This document shows, in pieces, positions 4,669-57,778 of a stretch of DNA of 64,000 bases. This DNA comes from Tricharina praecox. Taxonomy: Eukaryota. Numbering within the stretch: position 1 is the stretch's first letter; each line of letters opens with the position of its first letter. Under the pieces are notes generated by a model. The model had not been told where the DNA came from and did not search any database. It saw only the letters and a list, made by a program, of their open reading frames with translations. The translations under genes were made by a program, and so were the position numbers. The stretch spans positions 930,001 to 994,000 of the forward strand of contig NW_026250408.1 in the NCBI RefSeq assembly GCF_024521635.1, given 5' to 3'.

Positions 4669-7600
4669 TTACATGATAACCTACTCAATGTTAGCAAAAG
4701 CCATTAATGGAGGAACAGAGATAATGAGACGTACGCAATCCTGCTCCTTCGTCTGCTGGGGCACTCCCATCTCCTCGAACGTCTTGGGTCCCTTTCCGCT
4801 CATAGGCGCCTTGACGGGTGCCGTCTGCGCCTTCACGGGTGGAGGTGGCGCAGGCTCAGGCGAGCTGGGCTCGGTGTGTGACAGGGGCGCCGGGGGGCCA
4901 TTGGCGGTTGAGGGGCGAGGCAGCTGTTGCTGTGGCTGTGGCGGAGGCGCCCATGGGCTACCGCTGGGAGAAGGCGAGGTGGGCAAACCCATCGGCTTTC
5001 CAGGAGGCCGGGGGCTCAACGGACTAAGAGGAGCGGAAGGAGAGTTAGCACCACCGACGGGAAGTCGTCCAGGTTGTTGCATTCCGGGGCCAGGCGATCT
5101 CGGGGGTCGTGGCGATCTCGGTGCGTTGGCAATGGGCGCTTCGAATCCGACATCGACCGGAGGAGGACGGTGTTTGCCTTCCGGTCCAGCGCCGTATCCA
5201 TCTGATCCCGAGTTAGGAGGAAGTCCCGGTCGTCCAGGATGTGGCAGCCTACCAGGACCGTGCATCGGAGGTCCGGGCGCGGGTCCTTGGCCAGAGGGCT
5301 TCCTGAAGGGCCCGCTCGGTCCGGGACCGCCCATCGAGCCCATTGCGGTTCCTGCGCGTGGAGGATACGTTCCGGCGGGAGGGATCATTCCGGGTCCGCT
5401 AGCTATAGAGAAAGGCCTGTCAGCGAGACGAACAGCAGAAAGTGGACGAGGTTGAGGACCATATCCAGCGGCAGATGAAGGCCGAGGGCCAAGGCTGTTG
5501 GAGATTCCTGGACGATCACTCAATGGGTAAGGGATCGCCGTTCCAGACCGGGGAGGGAGAATGGCAGATTGGGGGGCTCCATAGGTTCCAGCAGGCGGGG
5601 GCATTCCACGAGGGGGCATTCCATGGGGGTGGGCATCATGTGGGACAATGGCGGATTGGACTCCATAGGACATACCGTGTTGGGGCGCATCGTCTGTTCG
5701 AATGAAACTCGTGTTTAGGGGCGCCATCGAGCCCTGCCTAGGCGGGAACTGGTGTTGGTTCGGAGGCGGATAGTTGTACTGGCCGGGTTGAGGATTCAAA
5801 GGGTCCGGCATGTCAACTTCCTCGATGGTAGGCGCTATGTGCTGTTGCTGTTGGCGCCTCTCGGTCAATGGGTTCTTTCCGCGCATGGAACCGTGGCGAG
5901 ACTTAATCTTGGCAACGGCAACGTTCTCGTGGTCCTTCCGGGAAAGCGTCTTTGATCTCGAGATACCATCGATACGTCCGGTAGCGTCCTTGTTACCGTG
6001 CTCGGCAGCCTACAAACCCGTCAGAAACCAGACGACGAGCACAAACACGATGCTGCTGCTCCTGCTTACCTTTGCATACCAACGTTGAGCCTCCTTAAGG
6101 TCAACCTGGACATACATTCCAATCTCGTAGAAGTATCCTTTCCGTGTCAGTAGGGGTGTGAGTTCCAAAGGAGCTATTGGAAGTTACCGATGGCGAATTC
6201 AGCAGTCCCAAGACCGCTCGAAGCCGCTCTCTTAGCATACTCGTAGGCGAGGTGCTCGTTCTTCTCGAAGACTCCTTCATGACCACACAGGAACCATTTA
6301 CTGATGGCCATCTCGGCTTCCGCCTCTCCCTGTCTCGCTGCAAGTGCGTTGTAATGCATGGACAGTGCAGGGTTGAAATCACAGCCCAGCTGGCACAGCT
6401 CATAGGCGGTTCCCATTTTGAGTTGGGCACGCTATAAGGCAGGTTGTCAGTAAGGGGGTTAAGGTTGCGGGAAGCCCATGCAACTTACCGAAAATCCGAG
6501 GAATGCCGCCTTCTGGATCATCTCCCTCGCCAAAGTAAGGTCGTTCGGCAGATAGCCTTCAGGAACGTCGATTCCGGGTAATTCCCGAGCGATGAGCATA
6601 CCGTAGACGTAGGCACCCTGCGGGGCGTTCTCGTCTGCGTGCTCTGCTGCGAGTCGGATCAATTCGCAACCTCTTCGGTAGTCTTGCCTTTGGCCGTGCT
6701 GCCCAAGCAACGTCATCATTCCCAACCGCTGCCGCAACGTCAGTACCACCAACAAATTAAGGTTGCTAGATTACCGACATAGTTGGAAGCCGAATCACCC
6801 AAGCGAGCACCACGCTCGTACCGCGCAATTGCCTTTTGGGGCTCGTTTGAGTTCTCAAACTGCATACCCATCCGGTACTCCGCCCGCGCATACTCCTTCT
6901 CTCCGGCCCTTGCATAGCACCTGAACGCCTCCTTCTTGTCCACCGGGAAGCCGAACTTGCCAAACTCCAACCAACTGCCCCTCATAAACTCGGCCCGAGG
7001 GTGGTGCTGGTCGGCCAAAAAGCTCACAACGTTGATTGCGTCGGTCTTGATCTGGTGCTCCAACGCCGGGGTCTGCGGCCGCGCGGGGGGATCCGCAATC
7101 CGCGTGTAGTAGTTCATTGCGATCTCGACGTAGTTCAACGCATCCTGCGCCCACACCAGCTGCATCTCCGGGTCGTTGGACGACAGCACATCCATCCGGG
7201 CACCCTCGATCTGCGCTTCCTTTTCCTCATCGGACGGCGGGATGTGCTGACCGGGGTTGATCAGTCTTGGAAAGGGGGAGGGCTCGTGGGGCCCGTCGAA
7301 CCGCGCCAGGTAGTCGTCTGCGATCGAGGAGTGGTACGACGAACGGCGGTCTTCGCTGACCGGTCGTCCTCCAGCTCCGCGCGGAGGGGCATATTGATCT
7401 TGGTATCCACCGCCCTGGTGGTAGCCGCGACTATTGTTCACCTCCAGTTCGAGGTGCTCGAGGCTGTCGGTGATCTGCTCAGGTACCTCCGGCATGATGC
7501 TGTTGTGGCGGGATTAGCAACGAGGCAAGAGTGAGAGTAAAAGGCAGTGCAAACGGGCAAAAAAGAGTGTGAGCGGGACAGTGGAGAGAAGGAGTGGAAG

Positions 7601-8003: not shown

Positions 8004-9619
8004 TGTTGAAGCTGGACGGAAGCCGGCAACGAAGCGAGCGGGCGATATCACTGATTATTAAGAGGTATTTTTTTATATTTTTCGCACAGGAGATCGGCGG
8101 CACTGGAGAAGAAGGGAAGGTTGAGCAGTCGGTGGGCGGGGGAGCGGGACAGGCGGGTTTTGAGGAGGAAGCCTTCCTTTCGGGATTGTTGTGTCGCGGT
8201 TGAAGCTGGGGGCGGGGTAACTACTGGGCTGGGGCGCCCATGTACCGAATTTGGGGGGTTGTTGTTTTTGGATGTTTGGGTGGTTTAGAACTCTAGAGAG
8301 AGACCCTTGCCGCTCTGGGTATGACGGTAGTGTTCGACGCCGCGTCACTAGAGAGTTCTGGGTGGCCAAATTTCGGATAGCAAACAAGAGGAAGCCCGAG
8401 AGCGTGGAATGCACAGGTGGCTGAGCGGCGGCGGACACGGATAGGGAGCACTCCGAGGCGGTGGCAGGCCGCAGAATGTTCTGGCTGTGGCTCTGTGAGT
8501 GCTATTCGGAGGCGGATAGTTATTACTAGGTGAGTACTATGGGGCAGCTGTGTGGTGAAGCTGAAGAAGGAGAGCGACAGTGAGCAGTGGGCACTTGGCA
8601 GCGAGCAGCAGGCAGACACGCAGGCACGGGCAAATCAGCTGCGATGAGTGCGGGGAGAGGATCACTATGTTGCAGTAGTTACATATGATTTCGGCAACTC
8701 ATCGCGGCGCTTCGACTTGTTTTTGGCACACGCGATGCACCGCGCGAGAAGCTTCGCCTCGAGCGTGACGAACGCCCCAACACGAGGCGGAGTGCGTCTG
8801 CAGTGCGTGGAGGCACTGAGCGGTGAGGAGGTGGGGTTCAACTTCAGCTTTGTGGAGGAGCCAGTTAAAAATGGAGCACTGGTGACCCGGCCCGCCTCAG
8901 CGCCTGGCGTATGACCCTGGGGCCTGAACACCACGTGGGCTGACGAGTGATGTATAGTGATCATCCGGGGAAGGGGAGGGAGGGAGATGGAACATCGACG
9001 GCAATGGTAGCCGGAATATTCCTCCTGCGACTCGAGGACCAATACGGCGGGATTCATTACGAAAAGGAGGTCCTTGCTGGAGTGAGTACATAGCTGCTTG
9101 GGTTCCTTCTAGGTACCTCCTGGAGAAAGATAGATTCTAATTTCGATGTTAATATGGATAATGGCGAGATGTCAAAACGATGGCATGGCGGGTGCTTGTT
9201 TAGCGAATGCGACGGAGTGGACTCCACGACTGGCCTGCAGTGTGGTCATGGTTTATGTCCGTACGAGAAGTTCTTTGTGGAGATGCAGATTTACCGGTGG
9301 GATAGGGAAGTATCTTCTTGGCGATTCTATGATTACATACTCCTTGGAGTCAGCTCACCCAGCTGCTACTCTACTATAAGAAGTCCAGGAAGATGGCACG
9401 GCTGGGTCTCTGGACATTGCCCCAAGGAGTGCATATGTAATAGAGCATCGGATGGAACAACACAACTCGAGAGACTCGATGGGCGTTGTAGAGGATCACA
9501 ATACCGAACGACTCATGAATCGCCCACGCTTCTAGATATAGGTAGTATGTACGTTTATTGAGTAATATCTACAGATCCATGTGTACACACCACGCTACCG
9601 AAACAGCGCGTTTATCGAA

Positions 9620-10798
9620 CTAAGCGGCGGTAAGCTGGTCACGACGACGCCAGTAGAACTTGACGTTGGCGGGGTCAGCCGTGGCAGCCTTGTTGTCGCC
9701 TGCTGTCTTTTATTAGCCATGTCCATACTGATGTAAACGATGCTTGAGATCACATACCATCACGACGCCAGTAGAACTTGACATTGGCAGGGTCAGCCGT
9801 GGCAGCCTTGGCGTCGCCTCCTGCTGCCTTGTATTAGCCATGTACATATGGATTGGATGTAAGGAAGAATGGGAAATTCGCACCATCACGACGCCAGTAG
9901 AACTTGACGTTGGTAGGGTCAGCCGTGGCAGCCTTGTTGTCGCCTTCTGCTGCCTTGTATTAGCCATGCACATAATGTAGCGAAGAATAGGAAATGCGCA
10001 CCATCACGACGCCAGTAGAATTTGACGTTGGCAGGGTCAGCGGACATAGGAGACACTTCGACCTCGTCACCTCCTATTGTCAAGTATGAGCCATGTCCGT
10101 ACCGATATGAACGAAGTTTGAGATTACATACCATCACGACGCCAGTAGAACTTGACGTTGGCAGGGTCCGCACCACCAGCCTCCTCGGTGTCGTCACCAC
10201 GGCGCCAGTAGAACTTGACGTTGGCAAGGTCAGCGGCCGTAGCAGACTGGTCGACCTCGTCACCTCCTATTGTCAAGTATGAGCCATGTCCGCACCGATA
10301 TAAACGAAATTTGGGATCACACACCATCACGGCGCCAGTAAAACTTGACGTTGGCAGGGTCGGCAGCCGCGGCAGCCTTGTCGTCGCCTCCTGTTGTCAA
10401 GTATGAGCCATATCCATACCGTTACAAACGAAGCTTGGGATCACAAACCATCACGACGCCAGTAGAACTTGACGTTGGCAGGATCAGCGGCCGTAGCAGA
10501 CTGGTCGACCTCGTCACCTCCTATTATCTTTTATTAGCCATGTCCATACCGGTATAAACGAAGCTTCGGACCACATACCATCACGACGCCAGTAGAACTT
10601 GACGTTGGCAGGATCGATATCGGCACCAGCAGTGACGTGATCACCACCGGCCTTGACACCGCCTGATGTATGATATAGTATTTAGTACCTTTGTCGATCG
10701 GGCCGAATGGAATGAGACTCACCGTTGACAACGGGAGCAGGAGCAGCCGAAGCCATCATAGCGAGGCCGAGGATGAGAAGGATCTTGGAGGCGTGCAT
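9620..10798 (-). CDS. Kex2-processed multi-core repeat precursor peptide (dikaritin/UstA-like RiPP precursor), 236 aa, 9 x NVKFYW-RR
   Basis: Exons 10798-10723, 10662-10579, 10520-10449, 10390-10325, 10266-10132, 10073-10002, 9946-9884, 9820-9758 and 9699-9620, all GT..AG phase-1 introns, 711 nt in total. Signal peptide MHASKILLILGLAMMASAAPAP, then nine acidic/Ala spacers each followed by D(P/L)(A/T)NVKFYWRR, ending DQLTAA*. Confidence 0.92.
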
Positions 10799-10928
10799 GA
10801 TGATTGAGTTGGTGAGGATTAATGAGTGAGATTTGGGATTGTAGATGAAGGAAGATGTCGAAGATGAGGGAAAGTTGTTGATGATGGATGGTAGGTAAGA
10901 AGAGAATGGATGGAGGGAACTGGAGGGC

Positions 10929-10934
10929 TTTATA
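10929..10934 (-). promoter_or_regulatory. Candidate TATA box (TATAAA) of the precursor gene
   Basis: TTTATA on the + strand ~130 bp upstream of the precursor ATG, followed on the minus strand by a CT-rich leader. Confidence 0.5.
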
Positions 10935-11002
10935 GCTATAGCCGAAACGGGCAAACAGGGCGTGGAAAACAAAACAAAACTTGATTTTTGATGTTTGATG
11001 GC

Positions 11003-11032
11003 AACCTCGTCGTCGTCAGTGACGACGAGGTT
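11003..11032. promoter_or_regulatory. Perfect 12-bp inverted repeat in the divergent promoter
   Basis: AACCTCGTCGTC-gtcagt-GACGACGAGGTT; a degenerate copy lies at 11641-11670. Confidence 0.55.
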
Positions 11033-11477
11033 TGACTTCATCGCCGATTGACTTGCAGGAACCCGCTCGAAGATTTCAGGACGGATGGCATCGGCTGTTC
11101 AGCAACGACATGTTTCTAAGGTACAAGCAGGTGCGAATTGTTTTGGCCTCCACCAGACCTGCAGGAGGAGGAGGAAGAGGAAAGCATCGCATCGGAGGCA
11201 GAGCAAGAGTGCCCAGCAGGGTACCGTGTCTGCAGCCGGTGCGATGAAGTAGGAAATAAGGATATGCAGTGATATGTTCTTGGTGCGATTTTCTTTATTA
11301 TTTTTTTGTTTTGCAGGTAGCGGTGCCACATCGTGCTGGCTGGTAACGAAGTGTCAACGTCCGTCCGGACAGAGTGGGCAGGAAAGGAGTGCGACGGCTC
11401 GTAGTCTAGATGGGCTGCATGTGAATAAACTGAAGATCTCTCTCCACCACCATAGACAAAGCCACATCAACATTCCA

Positions 11478-11566
11478 ATGGCCAAGGACGAGGAAGAGAG
11501 TATCCCTCTCACCCACGCTTCCTCCTGCATCCCCGGCGGGGAGGACGCCGGCTTGGAGGATACTGG
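11478..11566 (+). pseudogene. Truncated duplicate of the DUF3328 gene 5' end
   Basis: MAKDEEESIPLTHASSCIPGGEDAGLEDTG matches MAADEEESIPLTHVYSRLPGAEDAGLEDTG at 11848, then runs into a second copy of the promoter. Confidence 0.85.
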
Positions 11567-11847
11567 AGGTTTTCACAGCTATCGCCGAAACGAGCGGACG
11601 GGGCTTGGAAAACAAAACTTGATGTTTGATGTTTGATGACAGCCTCGTCGACGTTAGTGACGACGAAGTTTGACTTCATCGCCGATTGCCTCGCATTAAC
11701 CTATGCGAATATTTCAGAACGGGTGGTATAGGCTGGCCAGCGACGCCATGTTTCCAAGATTGATGGTAGGTGCAAATTGTTTTAGAACCCACCATATCAG
11801 CTTTTCATCTACACCACTACCATCGACAAAACGACACCAACCTTCCA

Positions 11848-12815
11848 ATGGCCGCGGACGAAGAAGAGAGTATTCCTCTCACCCACGTCTATTCCCGCCT
11901 TCCCGGCGCGGAGGACGCTGGTTTAGAGGATACTGGTTCGGAGCCCACTCCCCCCACCCGTTCCTCCAGGCTGCTCGCCTGTCCTCTCAAGATATCCAAG
12001 CTTCCATGGATGGTCCACGGTCTCCTCATCATGGCCTACACCATCGGCTTCGTGGGCCTGTACGCCAGCTTTCCCGGCTCCTTGCATCCACACAAGTGGG
12101 ACTCCGACGAGCGCTCGCACATCTACTGTACGTCCCCACCTCCTCATCACTTAACCAAACTAACGCCCCTCCGCAGCTCCCCTCTGGGACCAAGTTGAAT
12201 ACAAGAACCTCCGTTTCAGCTCGGGCCCCTGGGTGAAGACTCCGTACAAGGGCGCGCCAACCCCCGCGATCGATGAGGCGTGGAACGCCATCGTGCCGCT
12301 GTACCTCATCCGCATCCCGGCCGCTGCCATCCCGCACCTCAACAAGTCCGCCACCGCCGCGACCTTCCCGGGCTCGAGCGACTATCTGGGCACCGTCGAT
12401 GCGTTCCACCAGCTGCACTGTGTCAACCTGGTTAGGAAGTACACCTACGCCGATTACTATAAGGACATTGATATCGCGTGGAGGGATCCGCCCGACATGT
12501 TGAGGACTCATGTCGACCATTGCATCGATGTGCTCAGGCAGAAGATCATGTGCGACGCCGACGTCTGTAAGTTGTTGTTCTTGTTCTGGTTATACGGCTG
12601 GAAAATTCGAGCGCAGCTGACTGGTGGTGGAAGCGGTGATCACCTACTCCTGGGTCGAGGGCCGCGAGCACGTCCTCCCCGACTTCTCGAACACACACCG
12701 GTGCAGAAACTTCGACAAGGTGCGGGACTGGGTTCTGGAAAACAAGATGGATATGGGCTCGAGGGAAATCACCAAGAGTAAGGAGGCGGTCAGTGTGCCT
12801 ACCGAGGCGCTCTGA
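11848..12815 (+). CDS. DUF3328 / UstYa-family oxidase (putative RiPP cyclase), ~283 aa
   Basis: Exons 11848-12127, 12177-12566 and 12634-12815. N-terminal TM helix (WMVHGLLIMAYTIGFVGLY), YSPLWDQVEY, PYKGAPTPAIDEAW, twin HxxHC motifs FHQLHC and HVDHCIDVLRQKIMCDAD, and PDFSNTHRCRNFDKVRDW. Confidence 0.95.
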
Positions 12816-12872
12816 GTTACCTCTGAGCTTGTACATATGGTGTCACTCGTGGAAGTAACGAGTGCTTCACTA

Positions 12873-12949
12873 TGACATTGAAAGTACATACACTCTGACA
12901 ATGAAAGTACATACACTCTGACAATGAAAGTACATACTCTACACTCTGA
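12873..12949. repeat. 23-bp tandem repeat (TGACAATGAAAGTACATACACTC) x~3 in the DUF3328 3' region
   Basis: Read directly from the sequence. Confidence 0.85.
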
Positions 12950-15487
12950 TGCATAGCAGTCTGGTTCCGCTGTGGGATGAAAACTGTGTGGCGTTTTGTG
13001 ACAGGTGCACACTAACTATCTCGCGGGGAAAAGTGGGGTACTTCTTTCTGTACTCGGATACCGGTAACTATTCGGACCCAGCTGAGGCAGCTTGGTAGCT
13101 TGGTGGGCTCTGGGTACTGCATGGTGGAATTTAAGCGCGACCCGGTACCAACGAATGGTTGGGCGAGAAAGAAAGTGGCAAAGTGCTATGTAACTATTAG
13201 CTTTCGTGCATACTCTGCCTGGCTGACATGCGGCGCATTGCCGCGTCCCCTAACTATGATAGCGCGGTATGCATCCGCAACCGCTCTTTCCTTCTTTCCT
13301 TCGAAGCTTCGAAGCTTCGGAATGTTATCCACCCGCCTCGTGGTTCGTCAAAATATTCGTCCTAAGAACCGGGTCGTTATGGGGGACCAGGCAAGCCGTT
13401 CTCCCGGAAGCAGCAGCACGTTTGAGGTTGTCACGTTAAGAGTTTCGTCAATGATAACTACGGTGCCTATGACCGAGAACCCCACAACCCGGATGCGTGC
13501 CGACATGGCGTGAGAAGGACGGGTATAGTTGCCGCTGTCATGCTTCTTCGTTTGCAGTTGTATACATATCCGCATGCATTCCAGCTGAACAGCGTGGCTA
13601 CACATATTCGAAGCTACCGCATGTATGGCTTCTGGATAGGTAACCGTGCTCCGCACCGGCATCTCGGACACTCGATACGGCACGGTATCGATTCCCTTGG
13701 ACGATTACGCGGATACTATACCTACGCGAGGATCCGCAGCCGAATCATACGTACCGTGGTCCGTATGGAGTCTTGCAAGGCGTGTTGATGCGGTTCCGTC
13801 TTAGCCGCCGCGTCTGACCGAAGCTGACTAATTCTTCGTACATACGTACAGATCTTTCGGGAGCGGCCGTTGCTTCCTTCTCGGTGCCAGAACCCTACGG
13901 TATTCAACACTTGAAGATGTATCCGGATTCTGCGTGCCGTAGCCCTACTCCTCGCGGCAAGATCTGATGCGAGACACTGGAATCCGACACCGTGCCGGCC
14001 TACGGTGGGCGAGATGGGAGGAAACCATGTATCCGACTCCTCCGTGGGGTTGATACATGCTGGGGAGTTAGCCTATCCGCCGCCACCATCACCCCACACG
14101 GAGATATATATCCAGGTACGAGTGCTGATAAACCTATATCTAAAGCTTGATTACCAGCACATGCCACACGGGCGAGAACGAGTGTTACACTGGAGCCACT
14201 CCCAGTCCACGGCATCCGAGACTCTGGAAGACGAAAGGCATGGGACGAGATGAGATTCGACAATTGGTTGGCTAGCGTCCAAGCGTCTGCTCTAGTTAGC
14301 GGCAGCTTTGTATTGGTTGGTTCGGCTTGGTGGCAGAAGCGTTTCGAGATGGGCCGGCTGAAACGGAGTGATTCTTGCCCCTGTGGCCTGACTGACTGAC
14401 TGACTGACGGCATAAACGCTGAGAATCGCCAGCGGTTCCAGCAACGATGCGTGGGGCGAATAACGAAGGAGAAGGAGAGAGCGGGGGGCTCGGATACGTC
14501 AAAAAGATGAAAGAATCAGGCCATTCGTGCCCAGCTTGGCACGTCGTCTGTCTGAAGTATTCTCGATCTGCAGACACCGACTTTCTGTGATGGGGATTCT
14601 GGTTATGCACCACGAAGTACCCCTGGCCGCGTGTAAAGTAGAATGTTCTATGTTCCCAGGGAGCACCGTGGCGCAGGAGTAGCAACCGTAGTTACTTGTT
14701 ACCGTAGTTACCTGCCTGCCTGCATACTCAGCACGCGAAGCCGATCTCTTCAGCCTTCAGCTTCCGTACCTTTTTCTCTCCTCCCTCCTCCCCCCCCTTC
14801 TGGGAATATATACAAACTACATACAAACTCACTCAGCAAGCATCCAAGCATACAACAAGCATACACCGTCCCACCACTCACAGCAGCGTTCCAACCGCTG
14901 CTGCAGCTTGTCCCCCCCGCCTCCCCTCCTCCTCCCCGGATACGCGTTTTTTCCATATCTGCGTTGCATTTTCACCTTCTTCTTTGTCCCTCGTTCTTAC
15001 TCTAAATATCCGTGAAGGCCGTCCCGCCAGCGTGCATCGCCGAAGCGTCTTTCTTGCGCGTGGGCAATACCGACAGCTAGCAACAAGCAAAGCAACATCT
15101 ACCGCTCTCCTTTCTTTGGCACGAAGCGGACCTCCACCGACGGACGACCAACAAGAATCAGAAACCCCCCCGTCGCTGCCCACACCCCCCCCCTCCTCCT
15201 CTTACCACTACTCCTCCTCCTCCGCCGCGCTTACTACAACTTACCAACATCGTACGATCCTCTTCCGCCGTTTCCGAATAGAATAAAAAAGAACACCGCC
15301 GCTTGCTACTAGTTCTCTCGACAACCGTTCAACAGCAGTTCAGCTGGTCCTGAACACCAACTCCGACAACACACCACCTACCTACCTACCAACGACCTAC
15401 CAACTACCTACCTACCTTTCCACCCACCAATACATCGTTCAACAGCTGGCGACGGAGCGCCGAGCGCCCGCAAAGAATCACAACAAG

Positions 15488-24672: not shown

Positions 24673-26546
24673 ATGTCCACTCACGACGCCGCCCAATGCA
24701 CCCATATCTATTGCCAACTTCACCGCGCCATGGATCCGTTGGACAACCGTCTGCCGTCCCTGTTACCAATGGTGCCGCCTTACCGGTCAGCCTCGCACGG
24801 CCCAGCTCCACCTTTCCAGTCCAGGGTGAGATCTAGCTTCTCATGTCCTTTCTCAGACCCGCTGTTTGGTTTCGGAAATTCCTCAGCTGCTAGCAGTGTT
24901 ACACTGGACCACGAGTCGTCTGTGAAGCGGAAGCGTGAGGACGGGGAAAAGGAACAGGAAGGGGATGATGAAAAGGAGATGGACGGGGAGGAGGGGTATT
25001 ATGGTGGGGAGTATGTTTCCGTCTCGAACCGGGATGAAGAATGGATCGAGAGAGTAGAAGAGAGCTCGGACAACGGCAATCCCAAGAGAGCGGTCCTACC
25101 AACAAAACCACTGGAGCCGGTCACGCCGATTCGTCCCATCAGACAGCTAGGGAGTGCCCCTGCTCCAAAAAAGTTGAAGTCGACGCCCTATCGAGTTATG
25201 CCCGATAAATGGACGGACCCCGGTGCGAAGCCTCCTAAGTCGCCTGTAACGTATGAGGAGTGGACTGCGAAGTATTGGAAACCCCGCAAAACCGATTCGA
25301 AACCCGTTCTAATCGGATGGCAAGCCCGACCAGCCGGCCAGGACAAGAAGAAGGGCTCGGACAGCGGTCCTAATAGGCCCACTGCGAAGTCGGATCTTCC
25401 AGCCCAGCCTGAAAACGTCGCAACCGCTACACTCACAAACCCCGCGAATCTGACCGCCAGTGATGTTTCCGCTATCGAATCTACAGATCTAGCATCTGAA
25501 AAGCTCGCGGCCGCCTGTTCGTCCGGCCTTGAGTGTGAGGATGGAAGCGTCATCACCAGCGGGGGTAGTTCTTCCCCCCAGCGCGAAAGTCACTCTCTCG
25601 GCTCGTCCGCTATCAAGAGCAGCCCACCTGGTTCCACCTGCGGCACCCTGGACGAAAGCGGGAATAGCAGTAGCGACAGCGAGGATAGCAGCGGCGACAG
25701 TGGGATTGGCAGCGGCGACGGTGATATTGGCAGCAGCGACAGCGGGATTAGCAGCAGCGACAGCGGAAATAACAGCAGTGACAGCGAGGATAGCAATCGC
25801 TCCCGCTTTCCTGCTTTGCCCGAAAGATGGTTTCTACCTGCTCCAATCTTCCCAAATCACATCTATAACTTTCCGTTCTCGTCCAGCGGGCCTTCAACGG
25901 GCTTCTCATCCAGCGGGCCTTCAACGGGCAACATTGATACCAGCGGAAGCAGTATCGTGGATGATGATGACTGCGACGGCTGTAGCGACTGTTCCCGTGA
26001 CAGCGACAGCGACAGCGATTGTTCCTCATCGTATTTCGAGGGGGACATGCAAACCATCCGCGAAGAGAGATTCTCAACCGGGGCCTCCTACAGCAGTGTC
26101 GCCAGCAATGGTCCTTCCGCAACACGTAAGCAACCAGCCCAATCCAACTACTTCTACCAAGACTGACCCTATTTCAGAGCAGCCCCTTCTCGAGGACGAT
26201 GATATCTGCGGCGGTACTGGTTGCGACCACCTAACCATCGATAAACCGGAATTCCGACGTGTAGTCCAAAACATCATGGAAGAGATTGGGAAAGGAGATT
26301 TCCTCTGGGCTCCTGGAGCGTTGACCACTCTTCAATCGCTGGCGGAGGACTATGCCGTGCGTGAATTGGCAGGTCGGTTATTCTCATTATGTCTCCTGTA
26401 GAACTAGAGCTGACTTTTATGTAGTGCTGAACAGGATATGTCAACATCGCAATGGAGACGCCATTGAGCCCAAGGACAAAGAATTGCTGGACATGTTCAG
26501 CATGAGGCGGACCGGGTATAGCGAGGATGCATTCAAGAAGTTCTAA
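24673..26546 (+). CDS. Low-complexity (Ser/Asp-rich) protein with a C-terminal divergent histone H3-like fold
   Basis: Exons 24673-26125, 26178-26372 and 26425-26546. The spliced C-terminus HLTIDKPEFRRVVQNIMEEIGKGDFLWAPGALTTLQSLAEDYAVRELAVLNRICQHRNGDAIEPKDKELL aligns by eye with H3 helices alpha1-alpha3. Confidence 0.65.
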
Positions 26547-39540: not shown

Positions 39541-39660
39541 AGCCCAGTCCAGCCAGCCCAGCCAGCCCAGCCAGCCCAGCCAGCCCAGCCAGCCCAGCCA
39601 GCCCAGCCAGCCCAGCCAGCCCAGCCAGCCCAGCCAGCCCAGCCAGCCCAGCCCAGCCCA
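39541..39660. repeat. 9-bp minisatellite (CCAGCCAGC) x~13
   Basis: Read directly; it produces the spurious WAG/SPA/LAG ORFs. Confidence 0.95.
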
Positions 39661-40636
39661 ACCGGTCCCTTCCCGATCCCTTCCATCCCGTGTTTCGTCT
39701 CCGAAGATTCCTGCTGAGGCCGGCGCCATTCAGCCTCCGCGTGACTGTCTGGGCAGCCTTCTGTCCGTCCATCCGTCCGCCCGCCGCGCTTCGCACTTTG
39801 CAGCATCATCATCATCATCACTTGCACACCCGCATTATTGACGGACCTAGGCCCCAGGTACCGTACATATGTCGGTACTATACGATGATAGGCCCCCCCA
39901 CTCATCCATTTGCACAGCCACGATCTGATGCACAATCCGTCTTCTCGAACAGAAAGGAAAAGAAAAACGCACCCTAGCAGTATGCGTGGTACTTGTACCT
40001 GCATCTCACCCCGTTACTCTAGTCAGGGGCAGCGTCGCAGCGATGATGTCGGTATCATCATGTCCAGCTTTTGTGTTCGCAGATAACTTATGCCCCTTAT
40101 CACTGCAGGGCCCTGGGCCAGCCAGAGCACGCGCAAGGGGGCCACATGGGGATCGCTAAGCCCCTACTATGCTTCCCCCCACCCACCCATCCAACCCACC
40201 CCCCCGCACCGACTAACTACCCGCGTCCTTCGAACGTTGCCCATTTCCATCCGTGGATTGTTGCGTGCAGCGATGACCGCTTGGGTACGGTGTGTGCCTG
40301 TGATGGTGGTTGGTCGCGTTTTGGGAGCTGTCGTGACGAAACTGGTGGTGCTGGCTGGAATGGGTGCGACTGTGGCAATGGTGTAGGTAGAGTACACTAC
40401 TCTATGATGTGCGGGAAGGGAAGGGATTCTGAAGGGAAGCCCTTTACTCTACGTCACGTCACGTCTGGTCTACCGTCTGGCCGTGTGGTATCTGCCTGGG
40501 TAAGTTTTTTGCCATGCTGCGCACCCATCCCCATCCCCCATCTCGAGTCGGACCTGCCGACTGCCGACTGCACACTGCACACTACACACTGCACACATGC
40601 GCAATATCTAAGGTTCCGAAGCAGCTGCAAACGCTC

Positions 40637-40733
40637 CTGGCCTCGCTGCATCTTCTGCAGCCTCCCGGCCTCGCTGCATCTTCTGCAGCCTCCTGGCCTC
40701 GCTGCATCTTCTGCAGCCGAGCCTCGCTGCATC
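40637..40733. repeat. ~28-bp tandem repeat with core CCTCGCTGCATCTTCTGCAGCC, x3-4
   Basis: Read directly from the sequence. Confidence 0.85.
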
Positions 40734-52029: not shown

Positions 52030-52330
52030 GCGCAACGTATCGTTGAAGGATATACGATGCGATACACATAGCAATAAGCGCAACCATATCACTATGCGTA
52101 TCGTTGAAGGATATACATGACATCATGCACATCCATACCACTATGCGTATCGGTGAAGGATACGCTTAGCAATACGCACAATCATATACATCAACCACAC
52201 CGCTACGCATGTATGATATCGTTGAAGGATACACATATCAATATGCACAACCATACCACTATACATATCGTTGAAGGATATACATAGCAATTAAGCACAA
52301 CCATACCGCTACGCATATCAACAACAACGT
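52030..52330. repeat. Degenerate ~55-65 bp tandem array with core TATCGTTGAAGGATA
   Basis: About five diverged units; AT-rich. Confidence 0.8.
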
Positions 52331-56053: not shown

Positions 56054-57778
56054 CAGAGCCACGTACTAAAGTCAGAGGCGTTATGTAAGCCTTATATAAG
56101 ATGAGGAAATTATATAGGCCTTCTATAAGCCACTCATAAGCACGGCCGACTCATAAGGCTTCCATAAGGTTTAAGCACTGCCACGCAGTGTATAGGTAAC
56201 AGCGTTTCTGGCAATCTCGGGATCCCGGATTCCCTGAGTCAGCGGGGCCGATGTCCGAAGACCGAGAGTATCCAGCCCACATAGAGCTATGCAATAAAGT
56301 CACCGGCATTATAGCAGCCTTGTATGAGGGCGATTTTGACAGACCCCCTGATGAGAAATTTTTACTATTAGTATTTTTTTCCCGTAAAACTTAGCTTAAT
56401 CCGGGTTTTCAAATTACAGGTCATATTGTCGGATAAGGCTTCCACAAGCCTGAGTGCGGTAAGAATTAGTCCCGATTCATAAGCCTTCTGTAATGCCTAC
56501 TAGCCGCGACGCTTATGAGCTCATAAGGGTTTCATAAGGATGCTATAGGGAATGTTGAAAAATAAGGGTTAGTAAGGCTTATACTACTCTCGTAAGGCTT
56601 ATTGAAATCCTGAATACTTATCACTTATCGATGCGGTTCCGTACCCTTATATACCTAAACTACTTTCCGTCTCCGCTCCCCCCTTCCCATACCCTCCGCC
56701 GCTACTCACTATGCAGCTCACCCTAACGCTGTACACATAGATCTACAGATGCTGTACCATCCATTCCACCATCCTCTAGCTGAGTCCAGCGGAGATTTCT
56801 TCTTCCGTGGGCGAGAGAAAGTGATGGGGGAGCTGTCTGCGGAAGAAGGAGTTGTCAGCGAGATAAGAAAGTAACAGGTGACTATCAGCAAGATGAGGAA
56901 GTGACGGGGGGCTGTCAGCGAGAGAAGGGGTCGTCTGTAAAAGTGGTTGGTGGCATTGATGTTTGAACTTGGAAAGTTTGTAGTGTAGTGTGGGGGGTTG
57001 TGGGGTTCGACGGCATAAGAAAGTTCGGAGTAAACTCAGTGGGCTGGGCACGACATCTCTGTTGCAGAGCGGTGGGAGAGCTGCCAGCGGAAGGGGGGCA
57101 GAACCAGCGGTGGGGGTCCAGCGGTGCCGCGTGCTCTCTTAGCCGTCTGCGTCTGATTCTTCGGCGTCCAACTCTCGGGGTGCCAGTGCTAGAAGAATAT
57201 AAGGCCGATATAAGAATTTCCGTGTCGAGCAGTCTGATTTTCGCATATGCGCTATGGATCCGTAAAGACGATAGAACCCATAGGCCTGAATAAGGCTGAT
57301 GGAACGCATATATCATGCTTGTGAAAGAACAGGGCTCATAGAACGCATATATCATGCTTGTGAAAGAACAGGGCTCATAGAATGCATATATCATGCTCGT
57401 GAAGAAATCAAGCGTGCGAAGCTCTAAGGGTTTTCTGTCTCAGGCTGATATATCCCATAATGCTTCGCAAAATCTGCCAGTTTCACAGTCATCATTGTAC
57501 GCTAGGGCTGTGCATGTCAAAAATGACTACATACGCCTGAGGAAGGTCCTAAGAATTACAGTGAGAAGGCCGATTTATGTGCTGGTGGTTTTCGCTGCAT
57601 AGGCATTATGTAGGAGCTACGAGAATTATAGGGTTATGAGAACATATGCCTTATTTTGACATAACTCTTACGGAAACCTTATGAGTTTCACGTGCTTATG
57701 AGTGGCTTATAGAAGGCCTGAACAATTTCCTCATCGTATAAGGCCTATATAAGGCTTCTGACTTTAGTACGTCGCTCT
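56054..57778. mobile_element. Non-autonomous TIR DNA transposon (~1.7 kb, ~110-bp imperfect TIRs); solo TIR copy at 52358-52460
   Basis: Left end CAGAGCCACGTACTAAAGTCAGA...ATAAGCCACTCATAAGCACG; right end CGTGCTTATGAGTGGCTTAT...TCTGACTTTAGTACGTCGCTCT. No transposase ORF inside; internal 39-bp tandem repeat at 57302-57405. Confidence 0.8.

Follow-up and report, generated by a model that had tools for sequence, protein, structure and literature searches.

Background

Can a run of short open reading frames (ORFs) lying beside a UstYa gene encode one single precursor of many peptides, and, if so, how was it missed? The question is raised by a locus of the Pezizomycete Tricharina praecox, situated in a 64,000-nucleotide stretch of contig NW_026250408.1 (assembly GCF_024521635.1, positions 930,001 to 994,000; hereafter the 64 kb window), in which a first-pass annotation had described a precursor gene holding about one peptide repeat per exon and enlarged by duplication of exon and intron units. 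In this work, we analysed this precursor gene together with the UstYa (DUF3328) gene that adjoins it. We consider it likely that the former, intact and made up of nine exons, encodes a secreted multi-core precursor processed by Kex2, and that the two genes form a minimal two-gene cluster of the dikaritin (i.e. ustiloxin) type, directing the synthesis of a peptide made on ribosomes and modified after translation (RiPP) in a Pezizomycete.

Anatomy of the precursor gene and of its predicted product

The precursor gene lies on the minus strand of the window, with its ATG at 10798 and its stop codon at 9620, in a GT-AG model built from the seven G|GT donors that follow ...CGT GAT G and from the aligned AG acceptors. 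From 1,179 nt of genomic DNA, this model predicts a coding sequence of 711 nt that is open throughout and specifies 236 aa. It comprises nine predicted exons (76, 84, 72, 66, 135, 72, 63, 63 and 80 nt) and eight predicted introns (60, 58, 58, 58, 58, 55, 63 and 58 nt), all eight of which run from GT to AG and are in phase 1. Several features given in the first-pass annotation are thereby recovered, namely the exact sizes of the seven internal exons (84, 72, 66, 135, 72, 63 and 63 nt), phase 1 for every intron, and the position of introns 2-8 (55-63 nt long) after the same codon (RRD-G|gt). The span then given for the gene, 9620-10722, begins at the stop codon and ends where intron 1 has its first base, which leaves exon 1 (10723-10798) immediately beyond it. 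The GATG|GT motif that provides the donor of introns 2-8 is found after seven of the nine cores, the exceptions being core 5a, which is followed by no intron, and the last core.

The CAGCAG acceptors noticed earlier in introns 6-8 are present, and tandem acceptors go beyond these three introns: all seven repeated introns carry at the 3' end two or more AGs with a spacing of 3 nt (58 and 61 nt in introns 2-5, at 52, 55 and 58 nt in intron 6, at 60, 63 and 66 nt in intron 7, and at 55 and 58 nt in intron 8). Any of these AGs may be in use, and the choice among them would alter one spacer residue and never the frame. As for the branch region that the repeated introns were said to share, CATGGCT(A/C)ATA, its ATGGCT(A/C)ATA part is found in all seven, but the leading C in only six, intron 3 having T instead.

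The predicted protein starts with a hydrophobic N-terminus and continues with nine units, each made of an acidic Ala/Asp/Gly-rich spacer, the core DPANVKFYW and Arg-Arg. Residues 6-16 reach a mean Kyte-Doolittle hydropathy of 2.84, whereas no other part of the protein exceeds 0.58 (a crude and uncalibrated measure); a Lys is found at residue 5, a small-residue site A-S-A|A-P after residue 18, and no second hydrophobic stretch beyond the N-terminus. The N-terminus of the precursor is thus consistent with a signal peptide. On the splice model, the nine RR-ended segments measure 33, 24, 22, 24, 21, 24, 21, 21 and 21 aa, and each of them ends with NVKFYW-RR, so that F-Y-W is invariant and Tyr occurs in 9/9. 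Kex2-processed repeat proteins (KEPs) are defined, in the available part of the survey that described them (PMC7329392), by a signal peptide and at least three repeats of at least 8 aa located between KR, KK, RK or RR, none of them exceeding 100 aa; given the splice model, the repeats of the predicted precursor conform to this rule. At the DNA level, a degenerate pattern for the core matched nine times in the window, each time inside the gene, with 0 matches expected (100 shuffles).

Support for the predicted splicing

The nine-core frame exists only in the predicted spliced form of the gene, which is supported indirectly by the frames in which the cores lie and by their synonymous variation. 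The nine cores are spread over all three genomic frames, and therefore could not be translated together without splicing. Across the nine copies of NVKFYWRR, four codons are variable and 4/4 are synonymous. For the 11-codon core DPANVKFYWRR, departures from the consensus amount to 2/198 at codon positions 1 and 2 and to 8/99 at third positions, and for the aligned introns 2-8 to 78/406 sites. The scarcity of departures at the first two codon positions and the exclusively synonymous changes therefore show selection acting on the peptide in the spliced frame.

The introns themselves carry concordant signals, as all eight have, besides GT and AG, a G at +5 and a branch-like box CT(A/C)A(T/A); in the repeated introns, this box stands 13 nt before the chosen AG, as counted on the sequences. 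They fall in the size class of the two introns (49 and 67 nt) that the neighbouring UstYa gene contains, and resemble them in their splice signals (GTACGT...CTAAC...CAG and GTAAGT...CTGAC...AAG for the UstYa introns, the second of which is confirmed by a T. praecox protein). Retention of any single intron would truncate the precursor in 8/8 cases, to 38-212 aa: with intron 1 retained, the protein stops after 38 aa and no core is made, and the unspliced frame from ATG 10798 indeed ends after 38 codons unless the 60-nt GT...AG segment is removed.

These data also bear on the idea that the array is decaying or silent, or is spliced in some other way, and that the nine-core protein is never made. 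Three soil metatranscriptome runs from one and the same study, in which next to none of the sequence words of the stretch occurred, gave 0 contigs over 9300-13200, a result that has no bearing on expression. The splicing model is predicted from sequence, the gene is missing from protein collections in which the neighbouring UstYa is present, and three donors are non-consensus (GTTTGT, GTGCGC and GTGCGA), all of which would fit such an array. It would hardly be expected, however, to keep a spliced frame open over 236 codons, to accumulate only synonymous changes in nine copies of NVKFYWRR while its introns diverged by up to 48 %, or to preserve GT, the G at +5, the CT(A/C)A(T/A) box and AG in 8/8 introns. 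We therefore regard a silent or differently spliced array as very unlikely.

Growth of the array by duplication of intron and exon units

The proposal that the precursor grew by duplicating an exon and intron unit is supported by the homology of the introns, by their position at the same codon, by the joint grouping of introns and spacers, and by the lack of copies elsewhere in the window. Introns 2-8 are homologous to each other, as had been put forward, with a mean pairwise identity of 68.5 % (52-90 %) compared with 36.8 % for shuffled controls (36.8 % +/- 8.1, maximum 48 %, n=30 pairs). Intron 1 shares 33-44 % identity with introns 2-8, i.e. the background level. Two types were distinguished among the repeated introns, type A (introns 2, 3, 4, 5 and 8) and type B (introns 6 and 7), and the spacers group likewise, GDEV... 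being found after introns 2, 4 and 5 and GD(N/A)KAATA after introns 6 and 7. Since introns and adjacent spacers sort into the same groups, the intron and exon units would have been duplicated together. Identity over whole units reaches 92 % for U6-U7, 88 % for U4-U5 and 87 % for U2-U4, compared with 68-74 % between groups.

On these sequence comparisons, units of about 118-130 bp, each consisting of one intron and one exon with its spacer and core, would have been duplicated in tandem by unequal crossing-over, which would leave an array of two unit subtypes and one mosaic unit. Unit 8 is the mosaic (Table 1), and is what unequal exchange between units would produce. Tandem Repeats Finder returned periods of 118, 130 and 193 nt in the array.

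Homologous introns at many sites are also what introner-like elements produce, and the present introns could in principle have spread in this manner into a pre-existing repeat array devoid of introns. Such elements would have had to insert seven times at exactly one codon position, and the intron subtypes would not be expected to co-vary with the subtypes of the adjacent spacers. When introns 2-8 were searched for as a dispersed element (blastn-short, 64 kb window), 45 matches fell in the gene and 122 outside it; the latter were all short and only chance-sized, the 20 of these 122 that were listed being 9-12 nt long with E >= 0.15. An introner-like origin is thus extremely improbable, and was rejected as no intron copies were found beyond the gene in the window.

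Exon 5 departs from the rule of one core per exon. It does contain two cores with no intron between them, as first described, but the intron loss then suggested is only one plausible origin. The 5a/5b junction reads CGT|GGTGAC, compared with CGT GAT G-intron-GA GGT GAC in an ordinary unit, so that a single 64-nt deletion (GATG, the 58-nt intron and GA) plausibly generated the exon; a single 66-nt tandem duplication of spacer and core inside the exon would fit the sequence equally well. The spacer of 5a shows 100 % identity with that of exon 3, and the spacer of 5b 33-63 % identity with any other; later exchange would therefore have erased the trail of the origin of exon 5.

Skipping of any of exons 2-8 keeps the frame (7/7), as was pointed out before, with the loss of one core, or of two in the case of exon 5. 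Phase 1 throughout and internal exons divisible by 3 come down to two facts that are independent of each other, one for intron 1 and one for the ancestral repeat intron, and not to eight, because any frame-keeping duplication of such a unit forces both properties; these forced phases and lengths therefore do not argue for selection on exon skipping. In fungi whose introns are short, intron retention prevails and exon skipping is rare.

The UstYa neighbour and the probable class of the product

The gene adjoining the precursor encodes a UstYa/DUF3328 protein, modelled in three exons as 283 aa, with PF11807 matches in the main exon (E 3.7e-37) and in the last exon (4.5e-08). The two genes are divergent, with ATGs 1,049 bp apart. 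The 49-nt intron of the UstYa gene is in phase 1 and carries a CTAAC branch box, and its second intron is 67 nt long. Both H-x-x-H-C motifs are visible in the translation. The model is identical, over 189/189 residues, to residues 3-191 of T. praecox protein P0007; the latter (191 aa, labelled partial) is devoid of the first UstYa exon, and its first two residues are translated intron. An N-terminal hydrophobic segment is present in the 283-aa model.

Dikaritin clusters combine a multi-core precursor with one or several UstYa/DUF3328 oxidases, as known for ustiloxin, phomopsin, asperipin-2a and victorin (available portions of PMC7329392, PMC9233826 and PMC12048977), and tyrosine is required for DUF3328 cyclisation according to the part of the KEP survey at hand (PMC7329392). 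We favour the dikaritin reading because UstYa adjoins the precursor gene, because Tyr is found in every core and because the KEP repeat rule holds for the predicted protein. By analogy with the dikaritin family, the maturation of the product could proceed as follows. The pre-mRNA would lose eight short phase-1 introns and the precursor protein would enter the endoplasmic reticulum (ER). In the Golgi, Kex2 would cleave after each RR, and a Kex1-type carboxypeptidase would trim the arginines, yielding a ...NVKFYW C-terminus. UstYa would then oxidatively cross-link an aromatic side chain in the F-Y-W core, Tyr being the usual partner, and other proteases would take off the acidic spacer. The divergent 1,049-bp region could act as a promoter region common to the precursor and UstYa genes.

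The same gene architecture could instead deliver unmodified linear secreted peptides, i.e. the precursor would be a plain KEP and UstYa would be there by coincidence or for another substrate. Linear products are common, as 78 % of KEPs have no nearby DUF3328 gene in the accessible part of the survey (PMC7329392), and the locus offers a single UstYa gene with no other tailoring gene recognised. Against this stand the divergent arrangement of precursor and UstYa, just 1,049 bp apart, the Tyr within the invariant aromatic core of every unit, and the housekeeping-type flanking genes, which leave UstYa without another candidate substrate in the window. We consider linear peptides an unlikely outcome.

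A precursor of an alpha-factor-type sexual pheromone would share several traits with the predicted protein, namely a signal peptide (here a signal-peptide-like N-terminus), tandem repeats and dibasic sites, and X-Ala/X-Pro dipeptides are found directly before the core. In filamentous ascomycetes, pheromones show a W-C...C-W type pattern, which is not seen in the NVKFYW core. No Pfam family, MF_alpha included, matched at the cut-off: at E <= 1, the three pieces of the precursor that were searched gave no MF_alpha, and only sub-threshold matches to Lipoprotein_21 (15.5 bits) and Gram_pos_anchor (14.1 bits), both unrelated. Searches of annotated proteomes revealed no homologue. In addition, 22 % of KEPs but almost no pheromone-type KEPs have a DUF3328 gene beside them, in the consulted part of the survey (PMC7329392). 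A pheromone function is accordingly highly improbable, and membership of the pheromone family was rejected as neither MF_alpha nor MF_alpha_N matched and no homologous pheromone precursor was found.

Several points nevertheless weigh against the reading of the pair as a dikaritin-type cluster. UstYa adjacency is a criterion and not a proof; the core boundaries and the cross-link are putative; and the splicing of the precursor is inferred from evidence internal to the sequence. Departures are fewer at the third positions of the cores (8.1 %) than in the introns (19.2 %), and gene conversion or recent duplication may add to core uniformity beside selection. Pfam searches on the ORFs of the window recognised no further tailoring, transporter or peptidase gene beside the pair. 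Finally, searches for homologues of the precursor returned nothing usable: the exon-5 peptide (44 aa) gave 33 candidates and 0 scoring ones among longer proteins; searched against 1.84 billion representative proteins, this peptide gave five matches at E <= 0.001, all of them to unrelated repeat proteins; the ESM Atlas search gave no usable match to the precursor; and an alignment of the eight exon peptides gave 111 pattern matches and 0 confirmed ones in metagenome contigs.

Visibility of the gene to mining and distant UstYa homologues

The expectation that mining pipelines would miss the gene holds for protein- and ORF-based mining, as a stop-to-stop frame contains at most two cores and no homologue was found in protein collections; it does not hold for repeat mining at the DNA level, since a tandem-repeat finder detects the array. 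Protein-based gene catalogues appear to have missed the precursor, although UstYa is present in them as a partial model.

With UstYa as bait, at least 593 pattern matches were obtained in metagenome contigs, with one confirmed locus among the matches listed (L001, 32 % identity, 3.6 kb). Its positions 278-967 encode a distant UstYa homologue. No repeat-bearing precursor was found in the available flanks of this 3.6 kb contig, where a single tandem repeat (13 nt x 3.2) and no repeat-bearing ORF were detected.

Coordinates and surroundings of the gene pair

The features of the precursor gene, of the UstYa gene and of the region between them are collected in Table 1.

Table 1. Features of the precursor gene and its UstYa neighbour (positions in the 64 kb window)
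Feature	Position	Strand	Basis
Exon 1, 76 nt: ATG and signal-peptide-like N-terminus	10723..10798	-	gene model, hydropathy
Intron 1, 60 nt, phase 1, GTGAGT...CAG; no relation to introns 2-8	10663..10722	-	gene model, alignment
Exon 2, 84 nt: long first spacer and core 1	10579..10662	-	gene model, core pattern
Intron 2, 58 nt, type A, GTATGT...TAG; another AG at 61 nt	10521..10578	-	gene model, alignment
Exon 3, 72 nt: spacer and core 2	10449..10520	-	gene model, core pattern
Intron 3, 58 nt, type A	10391..10448	-	gene model, alignment
Exon 4, 66 nt: spacer and core 3	10325..10390	-	gene model, core pattern
Intron 4, 58 nt, type A; 90 % identity to intron 5	10267..10324	-	gene model, alignment
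Exon 5, 135 nt: cores 5a and 5b without intervening intron; junction CGT|GGTGAC	10132..10266	-	gene model, alignment
Intron 5, 58 nt, type A	10074..10131	-	gene model, alignment
Exon 6, 72 nt: spacer and core 6	10002..10073	-	gene model, core pattern
Intron 6, 55 nt, type B, GTGCGC...CAGCAG; other possible AGs at 52 and 58 nt	9947..10001	-	gene model, alignment
Exon 7, 63 nt: spacer and core 7	9884..9946	-	gene model, core pattern
Intron 7, 63 nt, type B, GTGCGA...CAGCAG; 79 % identity to intron 6	9821..9883	-	gene model, alignment
Exon 8, 63 nt: spacer and core 8	9758..9820	-	gene model, core pattern
Intron 8, 58 nt, mosaic: type-A 5' part; acceptor and next spacer type-B-like	9700..9757	-	gene model, alignment
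Exon 9, 80 nt: spacer and core 9, 6-residue tail, stop codon 9622-9620	9620..9699	-	gene model
Intergenic region between precursor and UstYa genes, with tandem duplication (spacing of about 640 bp, 76-84 % identity)	10911..11936	.	repeat search
UstYa/DUF3328 gene, 283 aa model	exons 11848-12127, 12177-12566, 12634-12815 (11848..12815)	+	Pfam PF11807, three-exon model

The region between the two genes contains repeat families with spacings of 638-643 nt and of 370 nt and 76-84 % identity. At 11478-11565, the first 29-30 UstYa codons recur as a pseudo-copy, which diverges afterwards; it may be an alternative first exon or a relic. The TATA-like promoter segment of the precursor (about 10911-10975) is itself one copy of the intergenic repeat.

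The flanking genes recognised in the window encode UGGT, a TLDc protein, a protein with a weak Sel1 match, an NADPH-oxidase-like ferric reductase, a mitochondrial carrier, an ankyrin protein and a zuotin-like DnaJ protein, i.e. ordinary or housekeeping types. Downstream of the precursor, large open frames at 4681-7513 (minus strand) specify a proline-rich protein, the one with the weak Sel1-repeat match, which at E 5.6e-4 does not reach the Pfam cut-off; they are probably parts of one multi-exon housekeeping gene. On the other side, between UstYa and the NADPH-oxidase-like gene, no ORF of at least 120 aa had a Pfam match over about 2.5 kb (12900-15400). Other short tandem repeats, unrelated to the array, are found in the window at 39544-39660, 40634-40718, 57294-57403, 52061-52319 and 25653-25795, with periods of 9, 28, 39, 49 and 42 nt, respectively.

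Implications for the mining of fungal RiPPs

Fungal RiPP mining starts from annotated proteins, and a predicted precursor with nine cores, located beside an annotated (partial) UstYa, appears to have escaped it. The interest of the locus is moderate and lies mainly in this warning for RiPP genome mining and in NVKFYW as a candidate for a new cyclic-peptide core, in a class of fungi that has been little explored. The lesson is that the DNA beside UstYa genes should be scanned for tandem arrays with phased GT...AG units, rather than protein catalogues alone.

A 2025 study on lichens reported, in its available part, UstY clusters without a repeated precursor (PMC12048977), for which hidden architectures like the present one are a possible reason. 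A broader conjecture, which we regard as quite unlikely, is that the placement of each core in a symmetric exon between homologous introns is a selected design. The introns would serve as recombination substrates allowing core number to change fast between strains with the cores undamaged, tandem acceptors and exon skipping from time to time would affect nothing beyond spacers or copy number, and the same hidden architecture might explain many 'orphan' UstYa clusters without precursor, such as those lichen clusters, as far as the accessible text describes them (PMC12048977). If hidden architecture did explain orphan UstYa clusters, protein-based mining would fail to see a sizeable share of the RiPP precursors of fungi.

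Comparison with known systems

Exon duplication, KEP processing and UstYa clusters are already known, and an architecture of one core per exon with homologous introns was not found in print for fungi. In the literature searched, neither a fungal KEP or dikaritin precursor with intron-separated cores nor a paper dealing with DUF3328 together with Pezizomycetes was found; a prior account of the former may exist in subscription papers on the gene structures of ustA, phomA, aprA and gigA.

Like KEPs, the precursor has dibasic-bounded segments, here nine of 21-33 aa, in agreement with the rule given in the available part of the survey (PMC7329392). That survey mined 14.5 million annotated proteins only, whereas the present gene is not in the protein collections searched; in its text, the words 'intron' and 'exon' have 0 occurrences each.

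Like the dikaritin precursors, the predicted protein combines an N-terminal ER signal (here signal-peptide-like), tandem cores at dibasic Kex2 sites and a Tyr per core, with an adjacent UstYa gene. It differs from them by its new core NVKFYW, for which no homologue was found, by RR at every dibasic site, and by a short exon of its own for every core but one. The cluster differs by its single UstYa, with no tyrosinase, methyltransferase, reductase or transporter recognised nearby, by its Pezizomycete host, and by a product that is predicted. With alpha-factor-type precursors, the common traits are the signal peptide (here signal-peptide-like), the tandem peptide repeats and the logic of Kex2/Kex1-type processing; the absence of an MF_alpha match, the UstYa neighbour and the unrelated core set the gene apart.

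The closest architectural parallel comes from sponges, in which the precursors of proline-rich macrocyclic peptides (PRMPs) have cores separated by mutually similar introns (PMC10945851). In the available part of that work, tandem duplication with introns as recombination sites is proposed, as is alternative splicing as a source of diversity. Both kinds of gene encode a multi-core precursor with similar introns between cores (68.5 % for introns 2-8 here, against 36.8 % after shuffling). In the sponge genes, as far as the accessible text shows (PMC10945851), long animal introns lie inside each core before the last Pro, and the maturation chemistry is different, with no UstYa; in the present gene, by contrast, the spacer holds the intron, which follows the dibasic site by one and a third codons. 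The resemblance is an architectural analogy, with no sequence relationship and no claim of common descent, and it makes the T. praecox gene a fungal counterpart to the intron-flanked multi-core precursors of sponges.

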